64,000 bases of DNA from Deltaproteobacteria bacterium (GTDB taxonomy: Bacteria; Desulfobacterota; GWC2-55-46; UBA9637; GWC2-42-11). This document shows, piece by piece, positions 742-25,657 of this stretch. The stretch covers positions 2,666-66,665 of the forward strand of contig JACRNI010000011.1 of the NCBI GenBank assembly GCA_016234925.1. The letters are read 5' to 3'. The notes under the pieces were generated by a model. It was not told the origin of the DNA, made no database searches, and was given only the letters and a program-made list of their open reading frames with translations. Both the position numbers and the translations under genes were made by a program. How positions within the stretch are numbered: position 1 is the first letter of the stretch; each line of letters starts with the position of its first letter.

Positions 742-1236
742 TTACTTTTGACTTTTGAGTTTTAAGTTTTGCGTTATATTCATTTCAAGACCCATAACTA
801 TTGCATCTTCATTATTGTCAGAATAATATCCTTTTCTGATGCCGATTTCTTTAAAACCAAAACCTTTGTAAAGCATCTGCGCCGCAGTGTTTGAATGCCG
901 CACCTCAAGATAAACAGCCCTTGCGTATTGCTTTGCAAGGAAATCCAAAATAAATTGAATGAGTTTTGTAGCTATGCCTTTTTTTTTAAAATCAGGATGA
1001 ACAGCAATATTCAAGATGTGAGCCTCTTCTGCAACAAGCCAGATAATTATATAGCCCACAAGGGTTTTATTATTTGATTTGTCCAGCCTTGCGACAAAAG
1101 AGCGGGAGAATGGATTTTGTAATTCCTTTTCAAATTGAGACCTTGACCATGGTCTTGGAAATGATACATCCTCTATTTTTAGAACCTCATCAATATCGCC
1201 TTGAGACATTGGCAGGATGGTTATATCCAAAAGCAA
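742..1236 (-). CDS. rimI: GNAT N-acetyltransferase, RimI-like (ribosomal-protein-alanine acetyltransferase family)
   Basis: 164 aa; SFPRPWSRSQFEKEL and the acetyl-CoA binding core KKGIATKLIQ typical of RimI. Confidence 0.7.
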   Translation of the reverse strand: MLLDITILPMSQGDIDEVLKIEDVSFPRPWSRSQFEKELQNPFSRSFVARLDKSNNKTLVGYIIIWLVAEEAHILNIAVHPDFKKKGIATKLIQFILDFLAKQYARAVYLEVRHSNTAAQMLYKGFGFKEIGIRKGYYSDNNEDAIVMGLEMNITQNLKLKSQK

Positions 1237-1327: not shown

Positions 1328-1945
1328 TTATTTTTCATTCACTGCAAATATAACATGCCATAGGTCTATCTTTTTCAACTTATACTTTTTCTCTACATGA
1401 AGATTTGACTTTTTTATAAAATCATTAAGAGAAAGGTCTGTGCGCCAGCCGATTTTCTTAGTTATGGGATTTAGCATCTTCACGACACTGCCAACCATCT
1501 TATTATTGCTCTTGAAGTGATTGACTATGACTATCCTGCCGTTCTTTTTGCAGACCCTTTTTACCTCTGATATTGTCTTGAACGGGTCTGGCACAACACT
1601 AACAACATGGGATATGAAAACCTTGTCAAATGTATTGTCAGGAAATTCCAGATTCATTGCATCCATTTCCATAAGTTCAATGTGGTTTAAATGGAGTTCT
1701 TTTATCTTTTCCCTTGCCTCTTTTAACATGGCAGAAGAAATGTCTATGCCGACAACACTGCAATATTTAGGAAATAGAGGCAAAGACAAACCTGTTCCAA
1801 CGCCAACATCAAGAACCCTCTCGCCATCCTTTATATCCATAGTTGCAATGGCATGTTTTATCCTCGGGAAAAAAAATCTTTTAAAGATTGCATCATAGGC
1901 GTTTGAATAGCCTGCATAAATCTTTTTTATTGCCTCTGTTTCCAA
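1328..1945 (-). CDS. Class I SAM-dependent methyltransferase (UbiE/COQ5-like)
   Basis: 205 aa; SAM motif I VLDVGVGTGLSL and motif post-I VVGIDIS. Confidence 0.8.
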   Translation of the reverse strand: METEAIKKIYAGYSNAYDAIFKRFFFPRIKHAIATMDIKDGERVLDVGVGTGLSLPLFPKYCSVVGIDISSAMLKEAREKIKELHLNHIELMEMDAMNLEFPDNTFDKVFISHVVSVVPDPFKTISEVKRVCKKNGRIVIVNHFKSNNKMVGSVVKMLNPITKKIGWRTDLSLNDFIKKSNLHVEKKYKLKKIDLWHVIFAVNEK

Positions 1946-2428
1946 TCAAGACACCTCCTTCCTGTAAATCATCTTATCATCCCCAATCTTGTAAAAATCC
2001 TTTATCCGCGCTATTTCTGTAAAACCATTCCTCTCGTAAAAGATTTTTGTTTTATAATAATCAGGCTTTGACGATGTCTCTGCGAGAAGCATCCTCGCAC
2101 CGATGTCTTTTAACACACTTTCAAGGCGATTGACAAGCACTTTGCCAATGCCCTTGCCTTGATATAATGGGTCAACAACTATCCAGTACAGGTCGTATGC
2201 GCCTTCTGTCAAAGGGATTCTGCCGTAGCAGATATAGCCAATGACTTTTTCACCTTTATCAACAGCGCAAAAAAAATTATAGTCTTTCTGTTCAGGGTTC
2301 CCCAAATAAATATCCAGCAGTTCTTTAGCGCAGTCTTTTTCTTCGTCTGTAAAATTGCCATTTCTATTTACTATAGAGATTATCGCATCCCTGTCAGATG
2401 ACAAAACCTTTCTAATGTTTATATTCAT
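1946..2428 (-). CDS. GNAT family N-acetyltransferase
   Basis: 160 aa; Q/RxxGxG/A motif YQGKGIGKVLV. Directly abuts the methyltransferase. Confidence 0.75.
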   Translation of the reverse strand: MNINIRKVLSSDRDAIISIVNRNGNFTDEEKDCAKELLDIYLGNPEQKDYNFFCAVDKGEKVIGYICYGRIPLTEGAYDLYWIVVDPLYQGKGIGKVLVNRLESVLKDIGARMLLAETSSKPDYYKTKIFYERNGFTEIARIKDFYKIGDDKMIYRKEVS

Positions 2429-2435
2429 TTATGGC

Positions 2436-3473
2436 TTAAGGTTTAAAGAATTTTTTATCTGTGCCATCATACCTTTTAACCGCACAATTTATTATTTCAC
2501 ATATGAGTTTAGAATATGAAAAACCTGCTGCTAAAGCGCTCCTTGCAAGACCGGCATCTGGCGATATATCAGGGTTTGGATTAACCTCTAAAACTTTTGG
2601 CATATTATCATTGCCCATCCTTATATCTATCCTTGCATAATCCCTGCAGCCAAGAGCCTTATACGCCTTAATCGCTGTGCAGGATAATTTTTCTTCAATA
2701 TCTTTTGATATATTTGCCGGGCAAACAGGCACGGTCTTTTTATAAAGCGGACTGGTTGTAATCCACTTTGCCTCATAACCGACTATCTTTGGTATATCCA
2801 TTGGAAGTTCAGAAAAATCTATCTCTGATACAGGCAGCACATTGGGGGTTTCATTGCCGATAACAGACACATTGAATTCCCTTCCGTCGATGTATTCCTC
2901 CACAAGCGCAGGCTGCTTATAAATATCTATGATGTATTCAATTCTTTTTTTAAGCGATGTAATATCCCAAACAACCGCATTGTTGTCTATGCCAATGCCG
3001 GCATCCTCATGAACAGGCTTCACAATAAGAGGGAAACTTATGCTGACAGAAGATAAAGATTTTATATCACCTATAACTGCATACTTGGGTGTTGGAATGC
3101 CTCTGGCATATAATATATTCTTTGCTGTTTCTTTGTTAAGGCTTAAACCAAGGGTTAAAGGCCCTGAACCAGTATATCTAAAACCGAATAATTCATAAAG
3201 CCCTGCGACATTCATCTCCATTGAACTTAAACCAAACGCCCCTTCACAGAGATTAAATATTATGTCCGGCGCACCATGCCTTAACATTTTTATAAAATCT
3301 TCAGGGTCATCTTTTAAAGGGACGAGTTTGGGGGCTATGCCATTTTCTTCAATAGCCTTTTTTACAGAATCCGCAGTATCAACAACTCCTTGAAGAGAGA
3401 TAATATCATCTAATTCGCCCTTTCTTACATACGCATCATCATTGTATGTTATAAAAATATTTTTTGGAATCAT
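2436..3473 (-). CDS. D-alanine--D-alanine ligase family ATP-grasp ligase
   Basis: 345 aa; GSGPLTLGLSLNKETAKNIL, PLIVKPVHEDAGIGI, EEYIDGREFNVSVIGN are Ddl-type motifs. Confidence 0.7.
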   Translation of the reverse strand: MIPKNIFITYNDDAYVRKGELDDIISLQGVVDTADSVKKAIEENGIAPKLVPLKDDPEDFIKMLRHGAPDIIFNLCEGAFGLSSMEMNVAGLYELFGFRYTGSGPLTLGLSLNKETAKNILYARGIPTPKYAVIGDIKSLSSVSISFPLIVKPVHEDAGIGIDNNAVVWDITSLKKRIEYIIDIYKQPALVEEYIDGREFNVSVIGNETPNVLPVSEIDFSELPMDIPKIVGYEAKWITTSPLYKKTVPVCPANISKDIEEKLSCTAIKAYKALGCRDYARIDIRMGNDNMPKVLEVNPNPDISPDAGLARSALAAGFSYSKLICEIINCAVKRYDGTDKKFFKP

Positions 3474-3485
3474 AACAAAAAAGCA

Positions 3486-3582
3486 AATCCTAATTTCTAA
3501 ATCCTAATTCCTAATGCTTTTATTTTAGAAATTTGACATTCGGATTTAGACATTATATTAGACATTAGGATTTAGGAATTAT
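3486..3582. repeat. Word-hairpin element (CCTAAT / ATTAGG words) between the two Ddl-like genes
   Basis: AATCCTAATTTCTAAATCCTAATTCCTAATG ... CATTAGGATTTAGGAATT. Confidence 0.5.
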
Positions 3583-3612
3583 TTTTACTTTCACGCCTTT
3601 CGTTTTTAGTTT

Positions 3613-4531
3613 TCAGATTGTTGTGTTCAACCCGTATCTCTTGCATGCAATATCCAAAACTGTATTTATAAGTTTATTATAATCCATGCCAGATGCCCTT
3701 GCTGCCTTTGGAAAACAGGAGTTATTCTTTGGGTCAGGGAGTATGCCCGGCAGGGGGTTGAGTTCCAGAATATAGGGGTTGCCGCTGGCATCCAGTCGGA
3801 CATCTATCCTGCACCAATCCTTTATATCCAGAACCTTAAATGTCTCTTTGCATACCGCCTCTATTTCATGCTTTAATGCCTTGTCTATTTTTGCCGGACA
3901 GACAAATATTTCCAGCGGATTATCAGGCGTGTCCCATATCCATTTTGCTTCATATGAATAGATAGGCTTGACACCTTCTGGCTTCATCTAAAACCCATTT
4001 GATTTTTTTATTCAGTTCTCCTTCATTATGAACAACAGAATCATTTCTTATGCCCTTGCTTGAGCCTTCATAAAGGGGTTTGACGATGAGAGGGAAATTG
4101 TAGCCCCCGACCTTTAGGTCGGGGGTGAGATGTGAGATGTGAGATGAAACTACAAAAAATCTTGCTGTGGGAATGCCGTAATATGACAGTATCTCTTTTG
4201 CCCTTGCCTTATCAAGGCATATGCCGAGTGTCAGAGGGTTAGAACCTGTGTATGGTATTTCAAGCATCTCTAATATCGCAGGAATATGCGATTCCCTGCT
4301 CCTGCCGTTAAGACCCTCCGCAATATTGAAAACAATATCAGGTTTTTCTATTTTAAGTTTTTGATACGCATCCTTGTCAGCCTCTATTAAAACAACTTCA
4401 TGTCTTTCTAAAATTGCTTTTTTTACAGCATCTATTGTCTCATCATCATCCCATTCAGCATAAAAATCCGGAGGGAGGTTCTCTGTTTCAATTTCTTTCT
4501 TTTTAATATTATATGTAATTGCGATTTTCAT
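3613..4531 (-). pseudogene. Second Ddl-like ATP-grasp ligase, split into two overlapping ORFs by a frameshift near 3950-3987. It also carries an in-frame hairpin-repeat insertion at 4103-4146.
   Basis: ORF 3950-4531 holds the N-terminal and central Ddl motifs (GSNPLTLGICLDKARAKEIL, PLIVKPLYEGSSKGI). ORF 3613-3987 holds the C-terminal ATP-grasp part (ILELNPLPGIL). Could be a real pseudogene or a sequencing frameshift. Confidence 0.5.
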
Positions 4532-4541
4532 TTTAGTAACA

Positions 4542-4692
4542 GATTACACAGATTATAAATTGCAGATTACGCAGAAATGTCATTGCGAGGCGAAGCCGAA
4601 GCAATCTCTTGGGATTGCCGCAGTCGCTTACGCTCCTTCGCAATGACAACAAGTTGTCATCTGTGTAATCGTTTTAAAAAATCTGTGTAATC
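4542..4692 (+). repeat. MITE-like family 3 copy (GATTACACAGAT termini, hairpin core)
   Basis: GATTACACAGATTATAAATTGCAGATTACGCAGA...GTCATTGCGAGGCGAAGCCGAAGCAATCTCTTGGGATTGCCGCAGTCGCTTACGCTCCTTCGCAATGAC...ATCTGTGTAATC x2. Confidence 0.65.
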
Positions 4693-4700
4693 ATTTTCAA

Positions 4701-5711
4701 TCATTTTGCAAGATTTTCTTTCACACACATGACAAGTTTTTTAATAACCCTGTCAACCACATCATCAGGGACTGCGTCGGGATATTGCGATTTCCGCCTC
4801 ATATCGCACATGTCATTTACATAATCAACAACAATGAATTTTCCGCTCTTTACCCCGTTAGAAGTTCCCCTCTCAGAGACACCTGTTTCTTTTATTTCTT
4901 TACTGCCTTTTAAAGATACACTTCTAACGGGGTTTATCTTTGCTATCTCTGTTGAAAAAAAATCCAGACAACATATATCGGCTATCCTTCTTGTTATATC
5001 TTCAAGTCCTTTCAGCCCGTAATGCTCCATTTCATGGCTAGTTACCCTGTGGTAGATATGCGTATCCGTATCCCACCAGCATGATATTACATCTCCGCAT
5101 ATATAAAAGACCCTGAACCATGCCATCCTGCTGTTCAAGCCTCTTCCAAAAACAACAGGTATGATTTTCTCCTGCAGCAGGTATTTGTCGTGGCTGATTT
5201 CCATCCGTGCCTTCACTATCTGGTGAATGGTTTTGGCATCAATAACAACACCTAGTCCGCCGCCTCCGCATGCAGGTTTTATTATGAACGGCATCCCAAG
5301 TTTTTTAAATCTTGAAATCTTCATCATAGTATGAAGTTTGGGATTATCTTTCCAAGGCGAGAGGATTATTGTATAAGGGACATTTATCCCATGTGTAAGA
5401 AACTCAAGGTGCATGGTTGCCTTGTCAACAGCCCTTGGCAAAAGGGAAACCTCGTTAATCATCTTAAAAGGCAGTTTTCTTGAATGATGCACCAGATTAT
5501 GAAACCTTGGATTTGTATCAGATGCGCGGTCAATGAACATCCTGAATGCAATCCTGCCTGCCTCTTGCAAACCAAGAGTTTCCTCAAGATTTGACGGATA
5601 GATTATATAACTGCTTACCCCGCTTTTTTGGCACTCTTTATCAAGGCTGTAAGCAAAATCCCTGTCATACTGCCATTCCCATGCAATGCCGAGGTCAAAA
5701 AATTGTGTCAT
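4701..5711 (-). CDS. ATP-grasp ligase with pre-ATP-grasp N-domain (RimK/GshB/GspS-like)
   Basis: 336 aa; FIIKPACGGGGLGV glycine-rich ATP-grasp loop; distinct from the two Ddl-like neighbours. Confidence 0.6.
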   Translation of the reverse strand: MTQFFDLGIAWEWQYDRDFAYSLDKECQKSGVSSYIIYPSNLEETLGLQEAGRIAFRMFIDRASDTNPRFHNLVHHSRKLPFKMINEVSLLPRAVDKATMHLEFLTHGINVPYTIILSPWKDNPKLHTMMKISRFKKLGMPFIIKPACGGGGLGVVIDAKTIHQIVKARMEISHDKYLLQEKIIPVVFGRGLNSRMAWFRVFYICGDVISCWWDTDTHIYHRVTSHEMEHYGLKGLEDITRRIADICCLDFFSTEIAKINPVRSVSLKGSKEIKETGVSERGTSNGVKSGKFIVVDYVNDMCDMRRKSQYPDAVPDDVVDRVIKKLVMCVKENLAK

Positions 5712-5728
5712 CGTTCATATTGGTAAAG

Positions 5729-5892
5729 TTGACGCTCAAAAATGTCTGGATGCTGGTAGCCGCAGGCTTTAGCCTGCGAAATAACGCAACCTAAAGGTTG
5801 CGGCTTTTTAGTATGTTGAGCGCAGAAGCCGAAGCGACAACGCCCGGGGCACCCATTGCAAAGCAATGGGTCGGGGCTTTTTGAGCGTCAAC
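5729..5892 (+). repeat. MITE-like family 1 copy with nested REP-like element (5755-5806) and GGGGCACCC hairpin (5843-5877)
   Basis: TIRs TTGACGCTCAAAAATG / CTTTTTGAGCGTCAAC; core GTATGTTGAGCGCAGAAGCCGAAGCGACAAC. Confidence 0.65.
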
Positions 5893-5895
5893 TTA

Positions 5896-6444
5896 TTATA
5901 AAATAAGGACTGCAGCAGCAATAACCGTCGTATATCTGCCGTCGCTCTTTACAATCGCTGACTGCGTTATATTGGTTGTCCTGACGATTTTATCGCTGAT
6001 TCTATAAATCTCTTTTTTCTCATCCCACCCTAGATTTGTGTCAAGTTCTATACCTAACGTTGACGCAAGCATTGCTGCGGCAAGGTCTTCTGCATAATCG
6101 CCTGCTATCTTGTCTGTCATGCCAAAGGCATGATGCTCGCTTAAGTAGCCATACTGTTTTTTATCCATTGGGATTGCACACCCTACAGATGCCGCCATCA
6201 GCCTTCTCGGCTCATTGCTGCAGCATCTTGACATGACGCAGAATGTCACCTGCCCAGGAGAAATCATTTTTAACCCTTGCGCCCTTGCAATAACCTTGCA
6301 CCCCGGCGGGAATATGCTGGATACTGTCACAATATTTAGTTTTTCAATGCCCGCATCTCTTAACGCCAATTCAAATGAATGCAGTTCTTCTTTATGAGTT
6401 CCTACACCCTTTGTGAAAAACACCCTTCTGGGAACCATGTTCAT
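5896..6444 (-). CDS. pdaD: Pyruvoyl-dependent arginine decarboxylase
   Basis: 182 aa; VTVSSIFPP matches the PdaD self-cleavage Ser-Ser site (IRISSIMPP in archaeal PdaD). Confidence 0.8.
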
Positions 6445-6463
6445 TTATCAAACCCTCCTTTTT

Positions 6464-6541
6464 CAGTGTCAGTGATTAGTGTCAGTATCAGTGAATGTTT
6501 TTTATCTTTATTACTGTCACTGACACTTCCACTCTTCACTG
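6464..6541. repeat. Word-hairpin element (GTCAGTGA words) between pdaD and agmatinase
   Basis: CAGTGTCAGTGATTAGTGTCAGTATCAGTGAATG-TTTTTTATCTTTATTA-CTGTCACTGACACTTCCACTCTTCACTG. Confidence 0.5.
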
Positions 6542-7528
6542 TTTCTTTACTATATATCCCATCATCTTGTAAACAAGTTTTGCAGACATAAAATCAGGCG
6601 CAACATTTCCGGGTATCGGGCATAATTCAACAACATCAAAACCAATTATATTTTTTTTGTTGGCAATAAATTTTAACAATTCAATAACATCATACCAGCC
6701 TAGTCCGCCCGGCTCAGGCGTTCCTGTTGCAGGCATAATTGACGGGTCAAACACATCAAGGTCAATTGTAACAAAAACATCATCTGTTAAATTATTGCAT
6801 ATATCCTTTGCAGGAATGTCGTTTATAATATCTTTTGCAAAATAGGTGGAGATACCGTGATGCGTTTTTCCTTGCCCCTTGACCCCCCACCCATCCGACC
6901 CATCCTTCGGATGGGTGCCCCGATGGGTACCCGCCCTTGACCCCTTCTTTAAAAACTCTGCTTCTTCAACAGATAAACTCCTTATGCCGACTTGAACAAT
7001 GGGACAAATTTCAGAAATCCTTCTCGCAATGCACGCATGATTATATGGGCTTTCCTGATAAACATCACGCATATCAGCATGCGCATCCATTTGCAAAACA
7101 GACATATTTGGATATTTTTTCTTTAATGCCTTAACAAGACCAAACGTTATGCTGTGTTCGCCGCCTAACATCACAGGTATTTTTTTGGCATTTATTATAT
7201 GCCTTGACGCATCATAAACAATGCCAGCCATCTCCTCTGGGCCTTTTGATGTCGGCTCAAGATAAGGGAGCGTATGTATACCAGCCTTGCATGCTTCTTT
7301 GTCCAATTCCTCGTCATACAGTTCCATATGCGTTGATGCATCTATGATTGCCCTAGGACCGTTTCGCGTTCCGCTTTGATAAGATGCAGTCATGTCATAC
7401 GGCACAGGCAGGACAACAAATCTGGCATTTTTAAATGATGATATTTTTGGCTGAAGACCGCCAAAGTTGTGCGGGATGCTGAATGGATAAGGAGGCATAT
7501 TATGTTTCGTTACCATCCCAACACCCAT
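6536..7528 (-). CDS. speB: Agmatinase (arginase/ureohydrolase family)
   Basis: 330 aa; metal-binding motifs VLQMDAHADMRD, DLDVFDPS, GFDVVELCP. Contains an in-frame GC-rich repeat insertion at 6871-6947. Confidence 0.8.
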   Translation of the reverse strand: MGVGMVTKHNMPPYPFSIPHNFGGLQPKISSFKNARFVVLPVPYDMTASYQSGTRNGPRAIIDASTHMELYDEELDKEACKAGIHTLPYLEPTSKGPEEMAGIVYDASRHIINAKKIPVMLGGEHSITFGLVKALKKKYPNMSVLQMDAHADMRDVYQESPYNHACIARRISEICPIVQVGIRSLSVEEAEFLKKGSRAGTHRGTHPKDGSDGWGVKGQGKTHHGISTYFAKDIINDIPAKDICNNLTDDVFVTIDLDVFDPSIMPATGTPEPGGLGWYDVIELLKFIANKKNIIGFDVVELCPIPGNVAPDFMSAKLVYKMMGYIVKKQ

Positions 7529-8499
7529 GCAAAAATCAGCGGGGCAACAATGCTTGCGTCTGATTCAATAATAAATTTAGGGGTATCTATCCCTAATTTG
7601 CCCCAAGTGATTTTTTCATTTGGAATAGCCCCGGAATATGAGCCGTAACTCGTGGTTGAATCTGATATTTGACAGAAGTATGACCAGAAAGGAACATCCT
7701 TCCAGCCTAAATCCTGATACATCATCGGCACAACGCAAATCGGAAAATCTCCGGCAATCCCGCCGCCGATTTGGAAAAAGCCCACGCCTTTTCCTCTGGA
7801 ATTTTTCTTATACCAGTCAGCAAGCCACACCATATATTCAATCCCTGATTTTACAGTAGAAGGTTTTAAATCTCCTTTTATGCAATAAGAGGCAAAAATA
7901 TTACCCATTGTAGAGTCTTCCCATCCGGGACAGACAATCGGCAGATTTTTCTCTGCTGCTGCAATCATCCAGCTGTTTTTTGGGTCTATCTCGTAATATT
8001 GCTCCATATCTTTTGAGAGAAGCATCTTATACATAAACTCATGAGGGAAATATCTCTCCCCCTTCCCTTCCGCAGTTTTCCATTGTTTGTAAATGCGCTT
8101 TTGTATCCTGCGGAATGCCTCCTCTTCAGGGATGCATGTGTCTGTCACACGGTTATACCCTTTCTCCATCAACTCCCATTCCTGCTGCGGGGTTAAATCT
8201 CTATAATTCGGAACGCGTTTATAATTCTTATGAGCGACCAGATTCATAATATCTTCTTCCAGATTAGCCCCTGTGCATGAGATGATATGCACCTTGTCCT
8301 GCCGTATCATTTCTGCTAATGAAATTCCAATCTCAGCAGTGCTCATGGCCCCGGCAAGCGTAATCATCATCTTGCCTTTTTTGCCGAGGTGCTTATCATA
8401 TGCCTTAGCAGCATCAACCAATGCTGCGGCGTTAAAATGCAGATAGTGCCTTTCTATAAATTGTGAAACAACGCCATTCTTCTTTGATTTTTTCTTCAT
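7510..8499 (-). CDS. Deoxyhypusine synthase family protein (DHS-like; possibly homospermidine-forming)
   Basis: 329 aa; NAD-binding DHS fold motifs ISCTGANLEEDI, FFQIGGGIAGDF; overlaps agmatinase start. Confidence 0.7.
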   Translation of the reverse strand: MKKKSKKNGVVSQFIERHYLHFNAAALVDAAKAYDKHLGKKGKMMITLAGAMSTAEIGISLAEMIRQDKVHIISCTGANLEEDIMNLVAHKNYKRVPNYRDLTPQQEWELMEKGYNRVTDTCIPEEEAFRRIQKRIYKQWKTAEGKGERYFPHEFMYKMLLSKDMEQYYEIDPKNSWMIAAAEKNLPIVCPGWEDSTMGNIFASYCIKGDLKPSTVKSGIEYMVWLADWYKKNSRGKGVGFFQIGGGIAGDFPICVVPMMYQDLGWKDVPFWSYFCQISDSTTSYGSYSGAIPNEKITWGKLGIDTPKFIIESDASIVAPLIFAWVLGW

Positions 8500-9155
8500 A
8501 ATCTGTAAACCCCTTTAAATCTTTCCATATGATTCTTATAGCCTGCAACCACCCTGTTTGCAAAATCAAGAGAGACTTCTTCATCAGCATCCATCATGTC
8601 TCTGACATATGTGGGCCCGAAATTATACGCAGCAAGCGCCAGTTCTGTTTTATCAAACTTATCTTTAAGGACATTAAAATAATAAAGTCCAATCCTCACA
8701 TTCATATACGGGTCAAGAAGCGTATGTTCCCCATTCCAATCTATGTTTAAGTCGCTTGCAATATCTTTGCCAACATATTCTCTGATTTGCATGAGACCCA
8801 TTGCCCCCCTGTCAGACCTTGCCCAGTTAAAAAATGAACTCTCTTTTTCTATAAGCGCCAGGACAAACATCGGGTCCAAATTATACTTACTGCTCTCATC
8901 AATTATCACCTGAGCAAGTTTAAGTTCCTCTCCTCTGGATAAGCCTGTCTTATAATTTCTGATGGTGTCAAGGACATAGTTGTCCTCCGCCGTCTGCTCA
9001 TCAAACACAATTTTAGGCACAACTTTCTGTCCAATATCGGTTCTTCTCAATTCCGCATCTGCGGAAACGACAGCCGCAATTACAAACACAAGCAGTATGG
9101 CTAATCCCTGCTTAAAGCATACAGGGACAAGTATATTTTTAACATTGAAATTCAC
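8496..9155 (-). CDS. Lytic murein transglycosylase (SLT domain) with signal/TM anchor
   Basis: 219 aa; SLT catalytic motif ESSFFNWARSDRGAMGLMQI; N-terminal hydrophobic segment. Confidence 0.8.
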   Translation of the reverse strand: MNFNVKNILVPVCFKQGLAILLVFVIAAVVSADAELRRTDIGQKVVPKIVFDEQTAEDNYVLDTIRNYKTGLSRGEELKLAQVIIDESSKYNLDPMFVLALIEKESSFFNWARSDRGAMGLMQIREYVGKDIASDLNIDWNGEHTLLDPYMNVRIGLYYFNVLKDKFDKTELALAAYNFGPTYVRDMMDADEEVSLDFANRVVAGYKNHMERFKGVYRL

Positions 9156-9183: not shown

Positions 9184-9411
9184 TTTTGAGCGTAATATTA
9201 TATTCAATTTGCAAGGTTTAAGTCAAGGATTAAGGCGATTGTAGTCTGCCGATTTATCGGCGTTTTTAAACTTGTCCCTGTATGCTTTAAGCAGGGATAC
9301 GCTCAATAAATTGAGCAACTACAAGTATGTTGAGCGCAGAAGCCGCTATGTTATGAGATTCCTCGCTTCGCTCGGAACAGGCTCCGCAGATGGGCATTTT
9401 CCAGCGTGAAC
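9184..9411 (+). repeat. MITE-like family 1 copy (degenerate/composite)
   Basis: Contains the family core GTATGTTGAGCGCAGAAGCCGC and right terminus GCAGATGGGCATTTTCCAGCGTGAAC. Confidence 0.5.
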
Positions 9412-9570: not shown

Positions 9571-10728
9571 TTACCCTTTCATTGCCTCTATCAAAACCCT
9601 TGCAACCTCTGGTCTTGAAAACTCAACAGGCGGGATCTGTCCTGCCTTTAACATTTCCCTTACCTTTGTGCCGGATAAGGCAATATGGTGGCTGGAATCA
9701 TGCGGGCAGCTCTTGTAAGATGCCATGCTCTCGCATTTTTTGCAGTAGAATGTATGGTCAAAAAAGAGCGGTGTTATGCCGATTTCCTGAGGGTCAAACT
9801 CGTCAAATATATAATGAGCGTCAAATGAGCCGTAATAATTGCCGACCCCTGCATGGTCCCTGCCAACAATAAAATGCGTGCAGCCGTAGTTTTTTCTTAT
9901 GAGCGCATGGAATATCGCCTCTTTCGGGCCTGCATATCTCATTGCCGCTGGAAGCACAACAAGGGCAGTCCTGTCCTTTGGATAATAGTTTTCAAGCAAA
10001 ACTTCGTAACACTTCATCCTCACATCAGCAGGTATGTCATCGCCCTTTGTCTCGCCTACAATCGGATGGATCATAAGCCCGTCAACTACCTCCAATGCGC
10101 ATTTCTGAATGTATTCATGCGCCCTGTGTATCGGATTTCTTGTCTGAAAACCAACGACCCTTTTCCAGCCTTTTTCTTTGAAAAGATGCCTTGTCTCTTT
10201 AGGGTCAAGCCTGTATTTTTTAAAGTCCTCCTGCTTTACCCTGTGTATGACTGACACCTTGCCTCCAAGAAGCATGTCCCCCATTTCAAAAACCTTTGCA
10301 ACACCCGGATGCGCCGTGTCCTTTGTGCCGTAGACCTGAACAGCCTCTTTTTCTTTGTCATGGCTATGCTTTTCTTCAATGTGAAGAACTGCTAAAATCT
10401 CGCCCTGTTTATTGACAAGGCTTACTTCCTCGCCTTGTTTTAGATTCTTTGCCTCGTCTTTTGTAACTGATAAAGTAACTGGTATTGTCCAAGGAAGACC
10501 ATTTGACAGTTTCATATTGTCCATGACGTTGTGATAATCATCCTTTTTCATAAACCCTTCGAGAGGACTGAATGCGCCTATTGCAATCATCTCAAGGTCA
10601 GACACCTCTCTGTCATTGAGATGCACCTTCTTTAGTTTTTTTGTCTTTTCTAAAAGTGCTTCCCTTTCCTTTCCTTCCAAAATCCTGTTTACAAGTTTGC
10701 CGCCATGCGGCTCGATTAAACCTAGCAT
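9571..10728 (-). CDS. sat: Sulfate adenylyltransferase (ATP sulfurylase)
   Basis: 385 aa; [11 protein letters not shown] and GRDHAGVG motifs. Confidence 0.9.
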
Positions 10729-10759
10729 TATTTATGCCTCCTTTTTTGAATACAGGTAG

Positions 10760-10813
10760 AGGTATAGGTAAAGTAAAAGATATTTTCCTCTACCTATACC
10801 TGTTTTACTTATG
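10760..10813. repeat. Word-hairpin intercistronic element (arms built of GGTAGAGGTATAGGTA words around an A/T loop)
   Basis: ACAGGTAGAGGTATAGGTA ... CCTCTACCTATACCTGT imperfect inverted repeat between sat and cysH. Confidence 0.5.
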
Positions 10814-11521
10814 TATCCCGCACTCCTTCTTTTCATCCTCTTTATTAAACCACCGCCACCTGCCTGAGCGGGGCGGTTCGCCTTTAACAAGAGGCGTTGA
10901 GCATATTATGCAGCCGATAGAGTCATAGCCCATATCAAAGAGTTTATTATACGGCAAATCATTTTCCTTTATATATTGCCAGATTTTTGCCATATCCCAG
11001 TCAGCAAGAGGATTTATTTTTAAGATTTTTCTGTTTTCTTCATCAATAATCTCTGCCTTTGGAACAGTTTTTCTATAATCTGACTGGTCTCTTCTAAGTC
11101 CTGTTATCCAAACATCAAGTGTTTTGAGCGCGCGTTTATTCGGTTCAACCTTTCTAACAAAACAGCAGTATTCCTGCTTTGCCTTGTCCATAAAAAAGAG
11201 ATACTCGCCGAATCTTTCAATCATATTCTTTAATGCGTTCTCATCAGGAAAATATCTTTCAACAGTCAAAACATATTTTTCTTCTGTATTATTGATTGCC
11301 TCATATGTCTCTGGATGAAGGCGAAGCGTGTCAATTGTAAAGCCCCTGAACTTTTTTGCACACCTGCTGGCAATATCAATAATCACAGTCCCTGTTAATT
11401 GAAAACTTGTGCCTATCGCGCACCTTTCACCAAACTCATCAAATGCCCATTTAATGAGTTCTTCTGCAGGCATTGCATTTAATTTTTTAAGTGTATCTTT
11501 TGTAATATCTTCAATCTTCAT
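10805..11521 (-). CDS. cysH: Assimilatory APS/PAPS reductase, Fe-S type (CysH family)
   Basis: 238 aa; PAPS-reductase fold plus cysteine pairs EYCCFVRKV and C-terminal KECGIH typical of 4Fe-4S APS reductases. Confidence 0.85.
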   Translation of the reverse strand: MKIEDITKDTLKKLNAMPAEELIKWAFDEFGERCAIGTSFQLTGTVIIDIASRCAKKFRGFTIDTLRLHPETYEAINNTEEKYVLTVERYFPDENALKNMIERFGEYLFFMDKAKQEYCCFVRKVEPNKRALKTLDVWITGLRRDQSDYRKTVPKAEIIDEENRKILKINPLADWDMAKIWQYIKENDLPYNKLFDMGYDSIGCIICSTPLVKGEPPRSGRWRWFNKEDEKKECGIHK

Positions 11522-11527
11522 AGTTAA

Positions 11528-12640
11528 TTATATTTCAATCCCCGATACTGCCGATACTGCTGACACTACCATGTTTCTGCCTCTGCTCTTGCCCAGATAC
11601 AAAGCCTTATCCGCATAATCAATAAGTTTGATTGCAGATTTGGCGTCATCGGGCCATGTGGCAACGCCGATAGTAACTGACACCATTCCACTCGGCTGAT
11701 TCTCTCCGCCCTTGTATTTGCTGCCCTCTACAGCCTTTCTGAGTTTTTCAGCAACCACTACTGCCCTATTATTGGGTGTCTCAGGAAGAAGACAGATAAA
11801 CTCCTCTCCGCCGTAGCGGGCGACAACATCCGCTGTCCTTAATTTATCAATCAATAGTTTTGCCGTCTGTTTAATCGCATCATCGCCCAACAAGTGGCCA
11901 TTCTTGTCATTGAAGTTTTTAAAGTGGTCAATATCTATCATAAGAACAGAAAAATGTTTTTTGTACCGCTTTGCCCTTGATAATTCCTTTTCAATGTAAT
12001 CAAAAAAGTATCTGCGGTTGTACATGCCTGTCAACTCGTCCCGCATGGATATATCTCTGGCATTTTTATAGATATATGCCTTCTCAACTGCTATTGCTAT
12101 CTGCTGCGCCACCTCTGTAAAAAATTTTACATCATTCTCATTAAATGAGTTTGGCTGCGCCTTGTGTATATTAAAAACACCGAGGATATTCCCATGCTTG
12201 CCAACCAATGGGACGCAAAGAAATGCGCCGATATTTGTCGCAGCGCCCTTATAAAACATGGACTTGGGTTCTTTGCTTACATCCTGCACCAGAACAGGCT
12301 TGCCTGTCTTTGCTGCCATGCCTGATATTCCCTCGCCTATTTTAAGGCATATGCACGGCAATACAACAGGGTCCGGATACCATGCCCTTACTACAAGTTC
12401 ATTGGATGTTTCATCCAGCAGCATAATGCAGAATTCATCAATACGAAGAGACTTGCCAATAGTGTCTATGGTTCCATTGAATATCTCTTCTATGCCGATG
12501 CTTAAATTAAGCACCTTGCTGATGTTGTAAAGCGAATAGATTTCTAAGACCCTGGCATCAAGTTCATTATTCAGCCTTTCCAACTCATCCCTTTCAGATT
12601 TGAGCCTTTCAAGTTCTTTAGCAATATCTTTCGCAGCCAT
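11528..12640 (-). CDS. GAF-domain diguanylate cyclase (GGDEF)
   Basis: 370 aa; N-terminal coiled coil, GAF-like region, and a GGDEF domain with RYGGEEF active-site motif. Confidence 0.85.
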   Translation of the reverse strand: MAAKDIAKELERLKSERDELERLNNELDARVLEIYSLYNISKVLNLSIGIEEIFNGTIDTIGKSLRIDEFCIMLLDETSNELVVRAWYPDPVVLPCICLKIGEGISGMAAKTGKPVLVQDVSKEPKSMFYKGAATNIGAFLCVPLVGKHGNILGVFNIHKAQPNSFNENDVKFFTEVAQQIAIAVEKAYIYKNARDISMRDELTGMYNRRYFFDYIEKELSRAKRYKKHFSVLMIDIDHFKNFNDKNGHLLGDDAIKQTAKLLIDKLRTADVVARYGGEEFICLLPETPNNRAVVVAEKLRKAVEGSKYKGGENQPSGMVSVTIGVATWPDDAKSAIKLIDYADKALYLGKSRGRNMVVSAVSAVSGIEI

Positions 12641-13260: not shown

Positions 13261-13302
13261 TCATCCCCCTTTTTAATTTCATTTCACTCACAAGTTTGCA
13301 CA

Positions 13303-13502
13303 GTTCACGCTCAAAAATTGCCCAGATGCAAGGCGGAGCAAGGTTTCAAGCGAGGCATACTTTTGTAGTATGTTGAGCGAAGAAGCCGCAGCGACAACAT
13401 GCACAGCGAGCGTTAGCGAGCGAATAGTAATGCATTATCCCTTACATGAGAGCATCCCGCAGGGATGCTCAACGCCGCAGATGGGCATTTTTCAGCGTGA
13501 AC
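13303..13502 (+). repeat. MITE-like family 1 copy
   Basis: Terminal inverted repeats GTTCACGCTCAAAAAT / ATTTTTCAGCGTGAAC; conserved core GTATGTTGAGCGAAGAAGCCGCAGCGACAAC. Confidence 0.7.
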
Positions 13503-13505
13503 ATC

Positions 13506-25488: not shown

Positions 25489-25657
25489 TTACGCAGATTT
25501 TGAAATGCGATTACACAGATGACAACTTGTTGTCATTGCGAAGGAGCGTAAGCGACTGCGGCAATCCCAAGAGATTGCTTCGGCGACCCATCCTTCGGAT
25601 GGGTGCCCCCCTCGCAATGACAAGTGAGGGTGATCGGAATGACATTTCTGTGTAATC
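25487..25657 (-). repeat. MITE-like family 3 copy (reverse orientation relative to 4542-4692) carrying a nested UUCG-hairpin element
   Basis: Termini GATTACGCAGAT...GATTACACAGAT / TCTGTGTAATC; core GTCATTGCGAAGGAGCGTAAGCGACTGCGGCAATCCCAAGAGATTGCTTCGGCG; nested GACCCATCCTTCGGATGGGTGCCCC. Confidence 0.65.

Follow-up and report, generated by a model that had tools for sequence, protein, structure and literature searches.

The window, a 64,000-nucleotide stretch of a deltaproteobacterial contig, carries an eleven-gene run on its minus strand, in the order SLT, SpeY/DHS-like, agmatinase-like, PdaD, orphan ATP-grasp, Ddl1, Ddl2, GNAT, PmtA-like methyltransferase, RimI, and pyrK. Profile searches bore out the genes named in a first-pass annotation, all on the minus strand and in the stated order, and the block reaches further upstream than described there, to the SLT gene. 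The features are as follows (window coordinates).

9197 to 9226, minus strand: candidate sigma-70-like promoter (TTGACT-18-TATAAT, 11/12, consensus match only)
8496 to 9155, minus strand: SLT-domain lytic transglycosylase (PF01464, 77 bits)
7510 to 8499, minus strand: SpeY-like deoxyhypusine synthase (DHS) homologue (Pfam DS, PF01916, 137 bits)
6536 to 7528, minus strand: agmatinase-family ureohydrolase, SpeB-like (TIGR01230, 240.6 versus a cut-off of 174.3)
5896 to 6444, minus strand: PdaD, pyruvoyl-dependent arginine decarboxylase (NF009064, 221 versus a cut-off of 207)
5712 to 5896, no strand: MITE-like insertion of 185 bp (terminal inverted repeats AAGTTGACGCTCAAAAA) that the close relative L170 lacks
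4701 to 5711, minus strand: orphan ATP-grasp ligase (weak ATP-grasp matches only, best rimK_fam at 35.9 bits)
4576 to 4658, no strand: palindromic spacer element (inverted ends TGTCATTGCGAgG), an insertion separating Ddl1 from the orphan ATP-grasp gene
3613 to 4531, minus strand: Ddl1 pseudogene (ORFs 3950-4531 and 3613-3987, Dala_Dala_lig_C match on both fragments)
3482 to 3630, no strand: palindromic insertion of 149 bp between Ddl1 and Ddl2
2436 to 3473, minus strand: Ddl2, intact Ddl-like ATP-grasp (Dala_Dala_lig_C, 108.8 bits)
1946 to 2428, minus strand: small RimI-like GNAT of the ligase module (Acetyltransf_1/7)
1328 to 1945, minus strand: PmtA-like SAM-dependent N-methyltransferase (Methyltransf_11/25; NF045882, 142 versus 390)
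742 to 1236, minus strand: RimI, ribosomal protein S18-alanine N-acetyltransferase (TIGR01575, 136.9 versus a cut-off of 86.4)

The best promoter-like site of the block, at 9197-9226, lies just 5' of the SLT gene and is a candidate operon start. The SLT protein has an N-terminal hydrophobic segment, and its gene overlaps the start of the DHS-like gene by 4 bp. SLT occupies the same slot in the relatives L006, L008, L010, and L027, an adjacency seen in one clade only among the 80 genome loci compared. At the other end of the block, pyrK follows rimI as it does in relatives; RimI is probably a housekeeping enzyme, since it passes its equivalog cut-off and belongs to a syntenic run with pyrK/pyrD.

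The polyamine genes form a recognizable unit. PdaD contains the self-cleavage motif (TVSSI) and would convert arginine to agmatine. The SpeY-like protein scores below the SpeY equivalog cut-offs and retains the catalytic Lys in a TWGK motif; it is predicted to couple two molecules of agmatine, giving N1,N9-bis(guanidino)homospermidine (G44G). The agmatinase-like protein, whose alignment shows no variation at residues that match the metal-ligand motifs of the arginase family, is a probable G44G/agmatine ureohydrolase that would free homospermidine. It carries a lineage-specific insert of 23 aa (residues 197 to 219, window positions 6872-6940) containing an 11-nt inverted repeat. The trio matches the SpeY/G44G homospermidine route, from arginine through agmatine and bis-guanidino-homospermidine to homospermidine, whose SpeY-SpeB-pyruvoyl-ADC cluster and chemistry are published (PMC13625781), and is not novel.

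The Ddl-like proteins missed every curated Ddl cut-off in profile searches; Ddl2 reached 153 bits with the best Ddl model, whose cut-off is 243. The first-pass annotation had asked whether D-Ala-binding residues are retained. Ddl2 has the full set of ATP, Mg, and catalytic residues. Compared with Escherichia coli DdlB, K97, K144, E180, E187, K215, R255, D257, E270, and N272 are retained and Y216 is replaced by W; the D-Ala site of Ddl2 is altered, with S150 replaced by A/G, S281 by A, L282 by G, and G276 by D. Matches with E<1e-30 number 1,691 clusters at 50% identity, and the family occurs in Bathyarchaeia MAGs. Tandem Ddl-Ddl fusions account for 11 of the top 150 cluster representatives, and Ddl2-GNAT fusions for at least 7. 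Because of the scores, the altered site, the occurrence in Bathyarchaeia, and the fusions, we judge that these genes are not cell-wall Ddl, in line with the earlier proposal that they act outside that role. That they are ordinary D-alanine-D-alanine ligases for peptidoglycan is very improbable: their top database matches are Ddl proteins and some sources annotate them as such, but their operon partners are KamA or PdaD rather than mur/fts genes, and the Ddl1 copy in the window is a pseudogene.

The order Ddl1-Ddl2-GNAT is kept in about 55 of the 80 genome loci, across many phyla. On these comparisons, it is a conserved, widespread, and uncharacterised module for putative amide bond formation. 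A full-text literature search found no description of it, so the earlier statement that the arrangement is not a described pathway holds for the ligase module. Lysine 2,3-aminomutase (KamA), whose product is beta-lysine, adjoins the module in 60 of the 80 loci; it is AblA-like and keeps D293, D330, and K337 of lysine 2,3-aminomutase. PdaD adjoins it in 10 (Delta/Thermodesulfobacteriota and Nitrospinota), and in none of the 80, at one contig per genome, do KamA and PdaD occur together beside it. The linkage of the ligases to polyamine genes thus recurs in relatives, as suggested earlier. Its extent varies: L006 and L007 have no SpeY beside the ligases, and L021 and L024 have neither SpeY nor agmatinase. 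The Nitrospinota loci carry PdaD-Ddl2-GNAT and lack both an adjoining DHS-like gene and an adjoining agmatinase gene, and in L024 stop and start codons overlap at both PdaD/Ddl2 and Ddl2/GNAT. Because the DHS-like gene is missing from L006 and both genes from the Nitrospinota loci, the constant partner of the ligases in PdaD-linked loci is PdaD alone, not a polyamine end product.

A Glu aligned with DdlB E15, which anchors the ammonium of the acyl donor (site 1), is present in 55 of 61 KamA-linked Ddl2 proteins versus 0 of 20 PdaD-linked ones, in an N-terminal alignment that is gapped and uncertain there; its loss is seen in both PdaD-linked Ddl2 clades. Since PdaD linkage traces to one main and one small clade (neighbor-joining tree, unsupported), it would represent at most two evolutionary events. 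The conserved order in the main clade also spans the housekeeping genes recJ, rimI, pyrK, and pyrD, and the ligase-PdaD adjacency could therefore be inherited gene order.

The orphan ATP-grasp protein had been described as RimK/GspS-like, which does not hold specifically: rimK_fam scores 35.9 against a cut-off of 143, and ArgX, LysX, Ddl, and RimK are similarly good matches to the AlphaFold model. Neither profile searches nor structure comparison found similarity to GspS for the ligases, and the proposed likeness to MysD likewise gained no specific support. Members of the family usually have about 300 to 312 aa and are annotated as hypothetical; in the window, an 84-bp palindrome is inserted in frame at 4853-4936, and this part is disordered in the model. 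Their usual neighbors are envelope-type genes (TPR lipoproteins, DUF4292/LolA-like, M23 peptidase, and glmM). With X denoting this gene, PdaD-X-Ddl1-Ddl2-GNAT is found in L090-L095, L170, and the window, and KamA-X-Ddl1-Ddl2~GNAT in L133, L135, and L141; KamA and PdaD thus share one slot in different loci. Stop and start codons overlap at PdaD/X in L170.

The first-pass annotation had placed both GNATs and the methyltransferase in one pathway. The small GNAT fits, being conserved with the Ddl pair; RimI probably does not. The small GNAT has the acetyl-CoA motif YQGKGIGK and about 45% identity to PDB 2R7H, and its top family matches are RimI-type N-terminal acetyltransferases (31 to 53 bits); some fused GNATs of the family are of the Acetyltransf_3 type. 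It is not AblB. The methyltransferase is nearest to the phospholipid N-methyltransferase PmtA, matches PDB 8YS9 with 99 bits, and occurs only in PdaD-linked loci among the 80; it may serve either a module step or phospholipid methylation.

The ligase module is partly decayed in this genome, as indicated by a deletion in Ddl1 and by palindromic elements between and inside genes. Relative to L170 (89.6% nucleotide identity), Ddl1 has a 119-bp deletion at about 3982 that removes YKQPALVEEFLDGREFTV...INYSTL, some 40 residues including the EE[FY] ATP hinge. Ddl1 also has a 13-bp CATCTCACATCTC expansion at 4127-4139. The gene had been called frameshifted; it is indeed broken, but by this deletion, and would be dead even with its reading frame restored. 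Ddl1 and Ddl2 overlap in L170, and in the window two more insertions, one of 61 bp and one of 149 bp, lie between the ATP-grasp genes. The 185-bp insertion sits between PdaD and the orphan ATP-grasp gene and contains a terminator-like hairpin at 5785-5802, which qualifies the earlier remark that no intervening terminator was seen. Further copies of this element lie at approximately 13301-13504, 28253, and 36399, and a second copy of the spacer element lies at 25531-25622. With a dead Ddl1, and with PdaD separated from the ligases by an insertion that bears a hairpin, the window's copy of the module may not be active.

The best explanation of the locus is that two units, a homospermidine pathway and an amide-ligase module, share one transcriptional block. 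We tentatively propose, at somewhat less than even confidence, that the module is NRPS-independent and builds an N-acetylated pseudopeptide on agmatine. Its members are Ddl1, Ddl2, and the small GNAT, to which this lineage would add the orphan ATP-grasp and the PmtA-like methyltransferase. In the Deltaproteobacteria/Nitrospinota lineage, PdaD stands in place of the aminomutase, and agmatine would be the basic building block. Each ligase would convert a carboxylate to an acyl phosphate and then form one amide bond, and the GNAT would acetylate the leftover free amine, giving an N-acetyl-(amino acyl)n-agmatine pseudopeptide, possibly N-methylated. We infer this substrate, product, and step order. 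Since the module pairs with lysine 2,3-aminomutase in most phyla, the scaffold is likely agmatine here and beta-lysine elsewhere, not spermidine or homospermidine. Agmatine has no carboxylate and is not chemically equivalent to beta-lysine; therefore, it cannot take the position of beta-lysine if the latter is the acyl donor. That PdaD already supplies the SpeY pathway was also counted against the agmatine reading.

It is possible, though doubtful, that the two units are merely neighbors and functionally independent, the module using beta-lysine (with KamA elsewhere in the genome) or ordinary amino acids. The unrelated housekeeping genes in the conserved block, the confinement of PdaD linkage to one or two clades, the 70 loci in which the module stands alone or with KamA, and the 185-bp insertion between the units all favor independence, as does the presence of SpeY-SpeB-ADC without the ligase module in Caldilinea (PMC13625781). 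Against it stand the mutual exclusion of KamA and PdaD and their shared slot upstream of the orphan ATP-grasp, the stop-start overlaps in the Nitrospinota locus, where no other polyamine gene adjoins, and the loss of the Ddl2 site-1 Glu exactly where KamA is absent.

ATP-grasp chemistry can amidate the primary amine of a polyamine, and most PdaD-linked loci have SpeY and an agmatinase homologue in the same block. A route that attaches amino acids or peptides to the finished polyamine (putrescine or homospermidine) in the manner of glutathionylspermidine synthetase, and then acetylates or methylates the conjugate, is nonetheless improbable, given the PdaD-linked loci that lack these enzymes, the missing GspS similarity, and a partner that in 60 loci is beta-lysine synthesis rather than a polyamine pathway. 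Moreover, SpeY-associated ureohydrolases are reported to be inactive on agmatine (PMC13625781), and putrescine may therefore not be made. The earlier suggestion of amide formation onto a polyamine thus gives way to agmatine as the likely scaffold, PdaD being the sole constant partner and KamA replacing it elsewhere. Modification of a macromolecule, in which the module would use a cationic amine to amidate or extend either a protein (at its C-terminus or on an acidic side chain, in the way of RimK) or a cell envelope precursor, with the GNAT acting RimI-like on an N-terminus, is unlikely as well. The GNAT matches, the envelope-type neighbors of the orphan ATP-grasp, and the SLT gene at the head of the block are in its favor, but no conserved target or carrier-protein gene was found beside the module, an SLT gene adjoins the module in a single clade only, and the module occurs in Bathyarchaeia MAGs, from archaea assumed to lack murein. 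The module's pairing with KamA or PdaD, each a dedicated source of a building block, is typical of small-molecule pathways.

That the module goes with the agmatine-making enzyme here, and with a beta-lysine-making one in most microbes, suggests an as yet unknown class of small amides built on a basic amine. A precedent for ATP-grasp amide joining with agmatine is the fungal E-64 pathway, in which an acid, an amino acid (by an ATP-grasp enzyme), and agmatine are joined, and whose amine units derive from amino acid decarboxylation (PMC12568646).

The gene block best fits two units lying in one stretch: a SpeY homospermidine pathway and an uncharacterised amide-ligase module that is independent of nonribosomal peptide synthetases (NRPS). 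The core of this module is Ddl1-Ddl2-GNAT, Ddl1 and Ddl2 being two Ddl-like ATP-grasp ligases. ORF calling and HMM assignment recovered every gene named in the first-pass annotation, all on the minus strand, and its gene list was correct. The block is set out below, with scores followed by the family cut-offs where these were reached.

Gene block of the window, in transcription order
8496-9155, minus strand, SLT-domain lytic transglycosylase (PF01464)
7510-8499, minus strand, deoxyhypusine-synthase (DHS) homologue (PF01916, 137 bits)
6536-7528, minus strand, agmatinase-family ureohydrolase (TIGR01230, 240.6 > 174.3)
5896-6444, minus strand, PdaD, pyruvoyl arginine decarboxylase (NF009064, 221 > 207; TIGR00286, 136.7 > 106.95)
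4701-5711, minus strand, orphan ATP-grasp (weak family matches only)
3950-4531 and 3613-3987, minus strand, Ddl1, Ddl-like, split in two ORFs
2436-3473, minus strand, Ddl2, Ddl-like, intact
1946-2428, minus strand, small GNAT
1328-1945, minus strand, class-I SAM methyltransferase, PmtA-like
742-1236, minus strand, RimI (TIGR01575 equivalog, 136.9 > 86.4)
after RimI, minus strand, start of pyrK

Just upstream of the block, at 9571-11521, translations indicate a Sat-like sulfate adenylyltransferase (385 aa), a PAPS/APS-reductase-like gene and, next to these, a GAF-GGDEF protein at 11528-12640.

The polyamine trio belongs to an already known pathway, the SpeY homospermidine route. Bacterial DHS homologues (SpeY) convert two agmatine molecules to N1,N9-bis(guanidino)homospermidine (G44G), which an associated agmatinase homologue turns into homospermidine, and a SpeY-SpeB-pyruvoyl-ADC cluster from Caldilinea aerophila is among the published examples (Li et al., J Biol Chem 2026, PMC13625781); the same pathway has been studied in Thermus (PMC10981699). 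The window harbors the same trio of DHS homologue, agmatinase homologue and arginine decarboxylase, as do the comparison loci L008, L011, L027, L029, L058 and L090. Its DHS homologue still has the Lys motif of the catalytic site (...ITWGKL..., aligned with ...VSWGKI... of a DHS) but is divergent, scoring 100.1 against 450 for NF001980 (homospermidine biosynthesis protein) and 80.1 against 500 for NF002699 (1,9-bis(guanidino)-5-aza-nonane synthase). Because it lies far below both of these SpeY-type equivalog cut-offs, we class it as SpeY-like on its context and fold, short of a proven orthologue, with G44G as its predicted product. The PdaD translation contains the motif ...TVSSI..., whose Ser-Ser is the self-cleavage site in this family. 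In the window the operon runs straight into ATP-grasp ligase genes, an arrangement not reported in PMC13625781, from which the term "ATP-grasp" is absent.

Our results argue against a role of the Ddl-like ligases in cell-wall synthesis. Ddl (the DdlB and VanA family) shares their three-domain ATP-grasp fold and is the family nearest to them in sequence, with E values of ~1e-24 to PDB Ddl entries, but the Ddl-like genes score under every curated Ddl or Van model. Ddl2 falls below the NCBIfam Ddl cut-offs, with 153.1 against 243 (NF002378) and 123.1 against 245.65 (TIGR01205), and the two Ddl1 fragments reach 81 and 73 in the same test, also short of the cut-offs. When 168 family members (77 Ddl1 and 91 Ddl2) were aligned to an Escherichia coli DdlB reference sequence checked for residue identity at nine landmark positions only, DdlB residues K97, K144, E180, E187, K215, R255, D257, E270 and N272 were invariant or nearly so in both groups. 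The Ddl2 of the window has the full set of ATP, Mg and catalytic residues; from the Ddl1 of the window the E180/E187 region is deleted. The residues surrounding the substrate differ. Y216 of DdlB is replaced by Trp in both ligases, and Ddl2 also shows A or G for S150, A for S281, G for L282 and D for G276; Ddl1 has E, S, W, S and C in the columns of E15, S150, Y216, S281 and L282. The N-terminal GGxSxE loop of Ddl becomes YN(D/E), and its ALHG becomes FNLCE. Thus the D-Ala residues whose retention in the pair the first-pass annotation had marked for checking (E15-S150-Y216 and S281/L282) are not retained as a set. The gene context differs as well: Ddl lies among mur and fts genes, whereas the module ligases lie with KamA (lysine 2,3-aminomutase) or PdaD and a GNAT. 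Within the 64 kb of the window there is no mur, fts or other ddl gene. With sub-cut-off scores and a changed D-Ala site, we rejected the reading as a canonical D-alanine-D-alanine ligase. Since Ddl1 and Ddl2 are each monophyletic in a neighbor-joining tree built without support values, the pair appears to be an old duplication.

The module is widespread. When one genome per GTDB species was scanned for the family, 80 loci were returned; they belong to Delta/Thermodesulfobacteriota, Ignavibacteriota, Bacteroidota, Aminicenantes, Planctomycetota, Kryptonia, Nitrospinota and Bathyarchaeia. In the loci, ORFs were called and searched with the proteins of the window, and the neighbors were clustered. 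A profile-free search of 1.84 billion representatives gave 1,691 clusters at E<1e-30. The best 150 of these include 11 tandem Ddl-Ddl fusions and a group of ~500-550-aa proteins with a C-terminal GNAT, and contain no fusions to PdaD, KamA or methyltransferase. The order Ddl1-Ddl2-GNAT is found in ~55/80 loci. The commonest extra neighbor, adjacent in 60/80 loci, is a KamA-family radical-SAM enzyme of ~395 aa. This enzyme should make beta-lysine, because it retains D293, D330 and K337 of the Clostridium lysine 2,3-aminomutase and is matched best by the AblA model. A search with an HMM of 61 module-linked KamA sequences found no KamA in the window. PdaD is adjacent in 10/80 loci, all from Delta/Thermodesulfobacteriota or Nitrospinota, and no locus among the 80 has both KamA and PdaD. 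In the Nitrospinota locus L024, nadE is followed by PdaD, Ddl2 and GNAT, with overlapping stop and start codons at both junctions of the latter three, and SpeY and agmatinase are not beside them. Two variant arrangements were also seen. In a second small clade (L019, L051, L054 and L058), SpeY-agmatinase-PdaD-Ddl1-Ddl2 is followed directly by a longer methyltransferase ORF and no GNAT, and methylation may take the place of acetylation there. In the Bathyarchaeia genomes L020, L036, L067 and L076, Ddl2 is convergent with Ddl1-KamA and no GNAT is adjacent; such archaeal Ddl-like genes may be misread as a sign of murein synthesis.

One substrate-site position follows the change of partner. In DdlB, E15 binds the ammonium of the acyl-donor D-Ala. 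A Glu aligned with it is present in 55/61 KamA-linked Ddl2 proteins and in 0/20 PdaD-linked ones, which have L, W or F in this column, although the N-terminal alignment is gapped and the column less certain. The loss is seen both in the main PdaD clade and in the small second clade, which sits next to Geobacter-type KamA loci in a tree without support values. As the alignment is gapped at this point and the tree lacks support values, the correlation with the partner is only suggestive. A strict search for specificity positions (≥80% conserved within each type) returned none; a looser search returned a few, among which only the Ddl2 Glu was consistent across both PdaD-linked clades. A difference at Ddl1 D87 between the linkage types was set aside, as it was not consistent across both.

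The third ATP-grasp gene, between PdaD and Ddl1, had been described as RimK/GspS-like, a label that our data do not bear out: it scores 35.9 against 143.4 for rimK_fam, and Foldseek gave no GspS match. The AlphaFold model (pLDDT 88.8) is confident except for a 28-aa insert, and retrieves ArgX, Ddl, LysX and RimK at similar TM-scores (~0.6-0.7) and 11-15% identity. Judged by this model, the protein is a genuine ATP-grasp ligase without a specific known family. Its own family gave 4,196 matches, annotated "hypothetical" and usually 300-312 aa long. Of the 80 loci from a metagenome scan, most have the gene on its own, next to TPR, DUF4292/LolA-like, M23-peptidase or FBPase genes, and its function may be related to the cell envelope. 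Outside the module, the gene in these loci (L096-L169, with L004) is repeatedly flanked by a TPR protein, with a short TPR-containing protein directly downstream on the same strand, and by a DUF4292/LolA-like lipoprotein, an M23 peptidase and a fructose-1,6-bisphosphatase; in one Zixibacteria genome the gene overlaps glmM. The family occurs in two module settings, PdaD-X-Ddl1-Ddl2-GNAT-MT-RimI in the lineage of the window and KamA-X-Ddl1-Ddl2~GNAT, at 42% identity, in L133, L135 and L141 (X, orphan ATP-grasp; MT, methyltransferase). KamA and PdaD therefore share one slot, as both precede the orphan ATP-grasp and the module.

The GNAT of the window is ~45% identical over its full length to PDB 2R7H, a structural-genomics entry whose name, "putative D-alanine N-acetyltransferase of GNAT family", is a guess from context. 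A gene 99% identical to 2R7H lies in a Desulfovibrio-type contig, in an operon of sigma-54 activator, KamA, Ddl, Ddl and GNAT, which places 2R7H in the KamA-linked form of the module and leaves the GNAT of the window in the PdaD-linked form. Desulfovibrio mangrovi (L171, CP104208) has the same KamA-Ddl-Ddl-GNAT operon, with a sigma-54 enhancer-binding protein encoded ahead of it. After that operon, L171:9629-11386 encodes a 585-aa protein with a GNAT and a histone-deacetylase/acetylpolyamine-amidohydrolase-type domain, and these neighbors hint at a cycle of acetylation and deacetylation and at regulated expression. The methyltransferase, confined to PdaD-linked loci, aligns over its full length with the PmtA equivalog NF045882 at 142.2, under the cut-off of 390, and its best solved relative is the PE N-methyltransferase PDB 8YS9 (99 bits). 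It may methylate an amine of the product, or act on phospholipids and have no part in the module.

The copy of the module in the window is probably impaired. The same genes are found in a compact arrangement in L170, a 5.1-kb contig from a close relative (89.6% nucleotide identity), where PdaD overlaps the ATP-grasp, an intact Ddl1 (338 aa) overlaps Ddl2, and GNAT and methyltransferase follow. Relative to L170, the window has 185 bp inserted between PdaD and the ATP-grasp (5712-5896), with inverted repeats at the ends, an 84-bp in-frame insertion within the orphan ATP-grasp gene (4853-4936), 61 bp of extra palindromic sequence in the spacer after this gene, and a 149-bp insertion (element 3482-3630) separating Ddl1 and Ddl2. 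A 119-bp deletion has removed the EE[FY] hinge region of Ddl1 and shifted its frame. These changes leave the assembly with a Ddl1 pseudogene and an interrupted operon. Counts in terminator and promoter scans were not above shuffled expectation, and only the two matches in intergenic positions are reported: a promoter-like site upstream of the SLT gene (9197-9226) and the sole intergenic terminator-like hairpin (5785-5802), which sits within the 185-bp insertion. Short palindromic, MITE-like elements are scattered through the genome and absent from the 89.6%-identity relative.

Palindromic elements of the window
4853-4936, 5712-5896, 4576-4658, 3482-3630 and 6872-6940, MITE-like palindromic elements
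~13301-13504, 28253, 36399 and 25531-25622, further copies

These elements resemble Rickettsia palindromic elements (RPEs). The 84-bp element, and probably also a 69-bp one in agmatinase, lies in frame inside a coding gene and adds a disordered loop; pyrK (1-740) has odd short inserts such as GSRGQGVKGS.

Taken together, these data raise a broader possibility, which we put forward tentatively and regard as somewhat less than probable: that a widespread pathway, as yet undescribed, has Ddl1-Ddl2-GNAT at its core and leads to N-acetylated oligo-amides on a cationic building block, which has been swapped from beta-lysine (KamA, most lineages) to agmatine (PdaD, this Deltaproteobacteria/Nitrospinota lineage), with matching changes in the substrate site of Ddl2. 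Its products could be compatible solutes of a new class, or conjugates resembling polyamines. In our preferred reading of the module, the basic unit is beta-lysine in most lineages and would be agmatine in this one. Every ATP-grasp would make a single amide bond by way of an acyl phosphate, and an amine left free would be capped by the RimI-like GNAT. The main rival explanation is plain synteny, in which the two units are merely neighbors. It is favored by a conserved block that also includes recJ, rimI, pyrK and pyrD, by the at most two evolutionary events behind the PdaD linkage, and by the fact that PdaD is already employed in polyamine synthesis; the KamA/PdaD alternation in a single slot and the Ddl2 Glu that follows it are what the swap from beta-lysine to agmatine has on its side. 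The first-pass annotation had the ligases decorating a finished polyamine; this now appears less likely, since no partner other than PdaD is constant.

As far as our full-text literature searches show, the Ddl1-Ddl2-GNAT module, the KamA/PdaD alternation and the orphan ATP-grasp family are undescribed, no account of any of them having been found. The Ddl-like family is large (~1,700 clusters at 50% identity, E<1e-30) and is routinely labelled "D-alanine--D-alanine ligase" or "ATP-grasp domain protein", so that cell-wall annotations in many anaerobes, and even in archaea, are probably wrong; lineages carrying the module include Desulfovibrio, relatives of Geobacter, Ignavibacteriota, Bacteroidota, Aminicenantes, Planctomycetota and Bathyarchaeia. 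The strict pairing with beta-lysine or agmatine synthesis suggests the first substrate to try, and the system is tractable, with a GNAT crystal structure at hand (2R7H) and the KamA-linked version present in D. mangrovi, a named species whose genome record is complete. If the swap to agmatine is true, agmatine gains a second use besides the newly described SpeY route.

Among known systems, the AblA/AblB pathway to the compatible solute N-epsilon-acetyl-beta-lysine shares an AblA-like KamA, with the lysine-binding Asp kept, and a GNAT, which accompany the module in 60/80 loci. It differs in that the module has two or three ATP-grasp ligases, which would be superfluous to Abl, that the window has no KamA, and that the GNAT is not AblB, an identity rejected because TIGR03827 gave no match or 20.4 bits against 205. 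Ngg combines a GNAT with ATP-grasp peptide-bond formation to make the osmolyte N-acetylglutaminylglutamine amide, a small N-acetylated dipeptide. The pairing of GNAT and ATP-grasp is common to both systems, but domain order and ATP-grasp subfamily differ, and no module protein matches TIGR03103 (Ngg), RimI alone giving 24 bits against 569. An analogy with leupeptin-type compounds was dropped, as the literature gave nothing usable, and the documented precedent of fungal E-64 was preferred. E-64 is assembled without NRPS, stepwise from an acid, an amino acid and an amine, by an ATP-grasp enzyme and an amide-bond synthetase, and amino-acid decarboxylation supplies the amine, agmatine (or putrescine or cadaverine) (PMC12568646). 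The E-64 enzymes are fungal and presumably unrelated, the oxygenase for the epoxysuccinate warhead has no counterpart in the module, and agmatine is joined by the adenylating amide-bond synthetase, not by the ATP-grasp enzyme. We claim no membership in that system; the likeness lies in how the module would work, by stepwise acyl-aminoacyl-amine assembly, and the chemistry that we propose is of a known kind.
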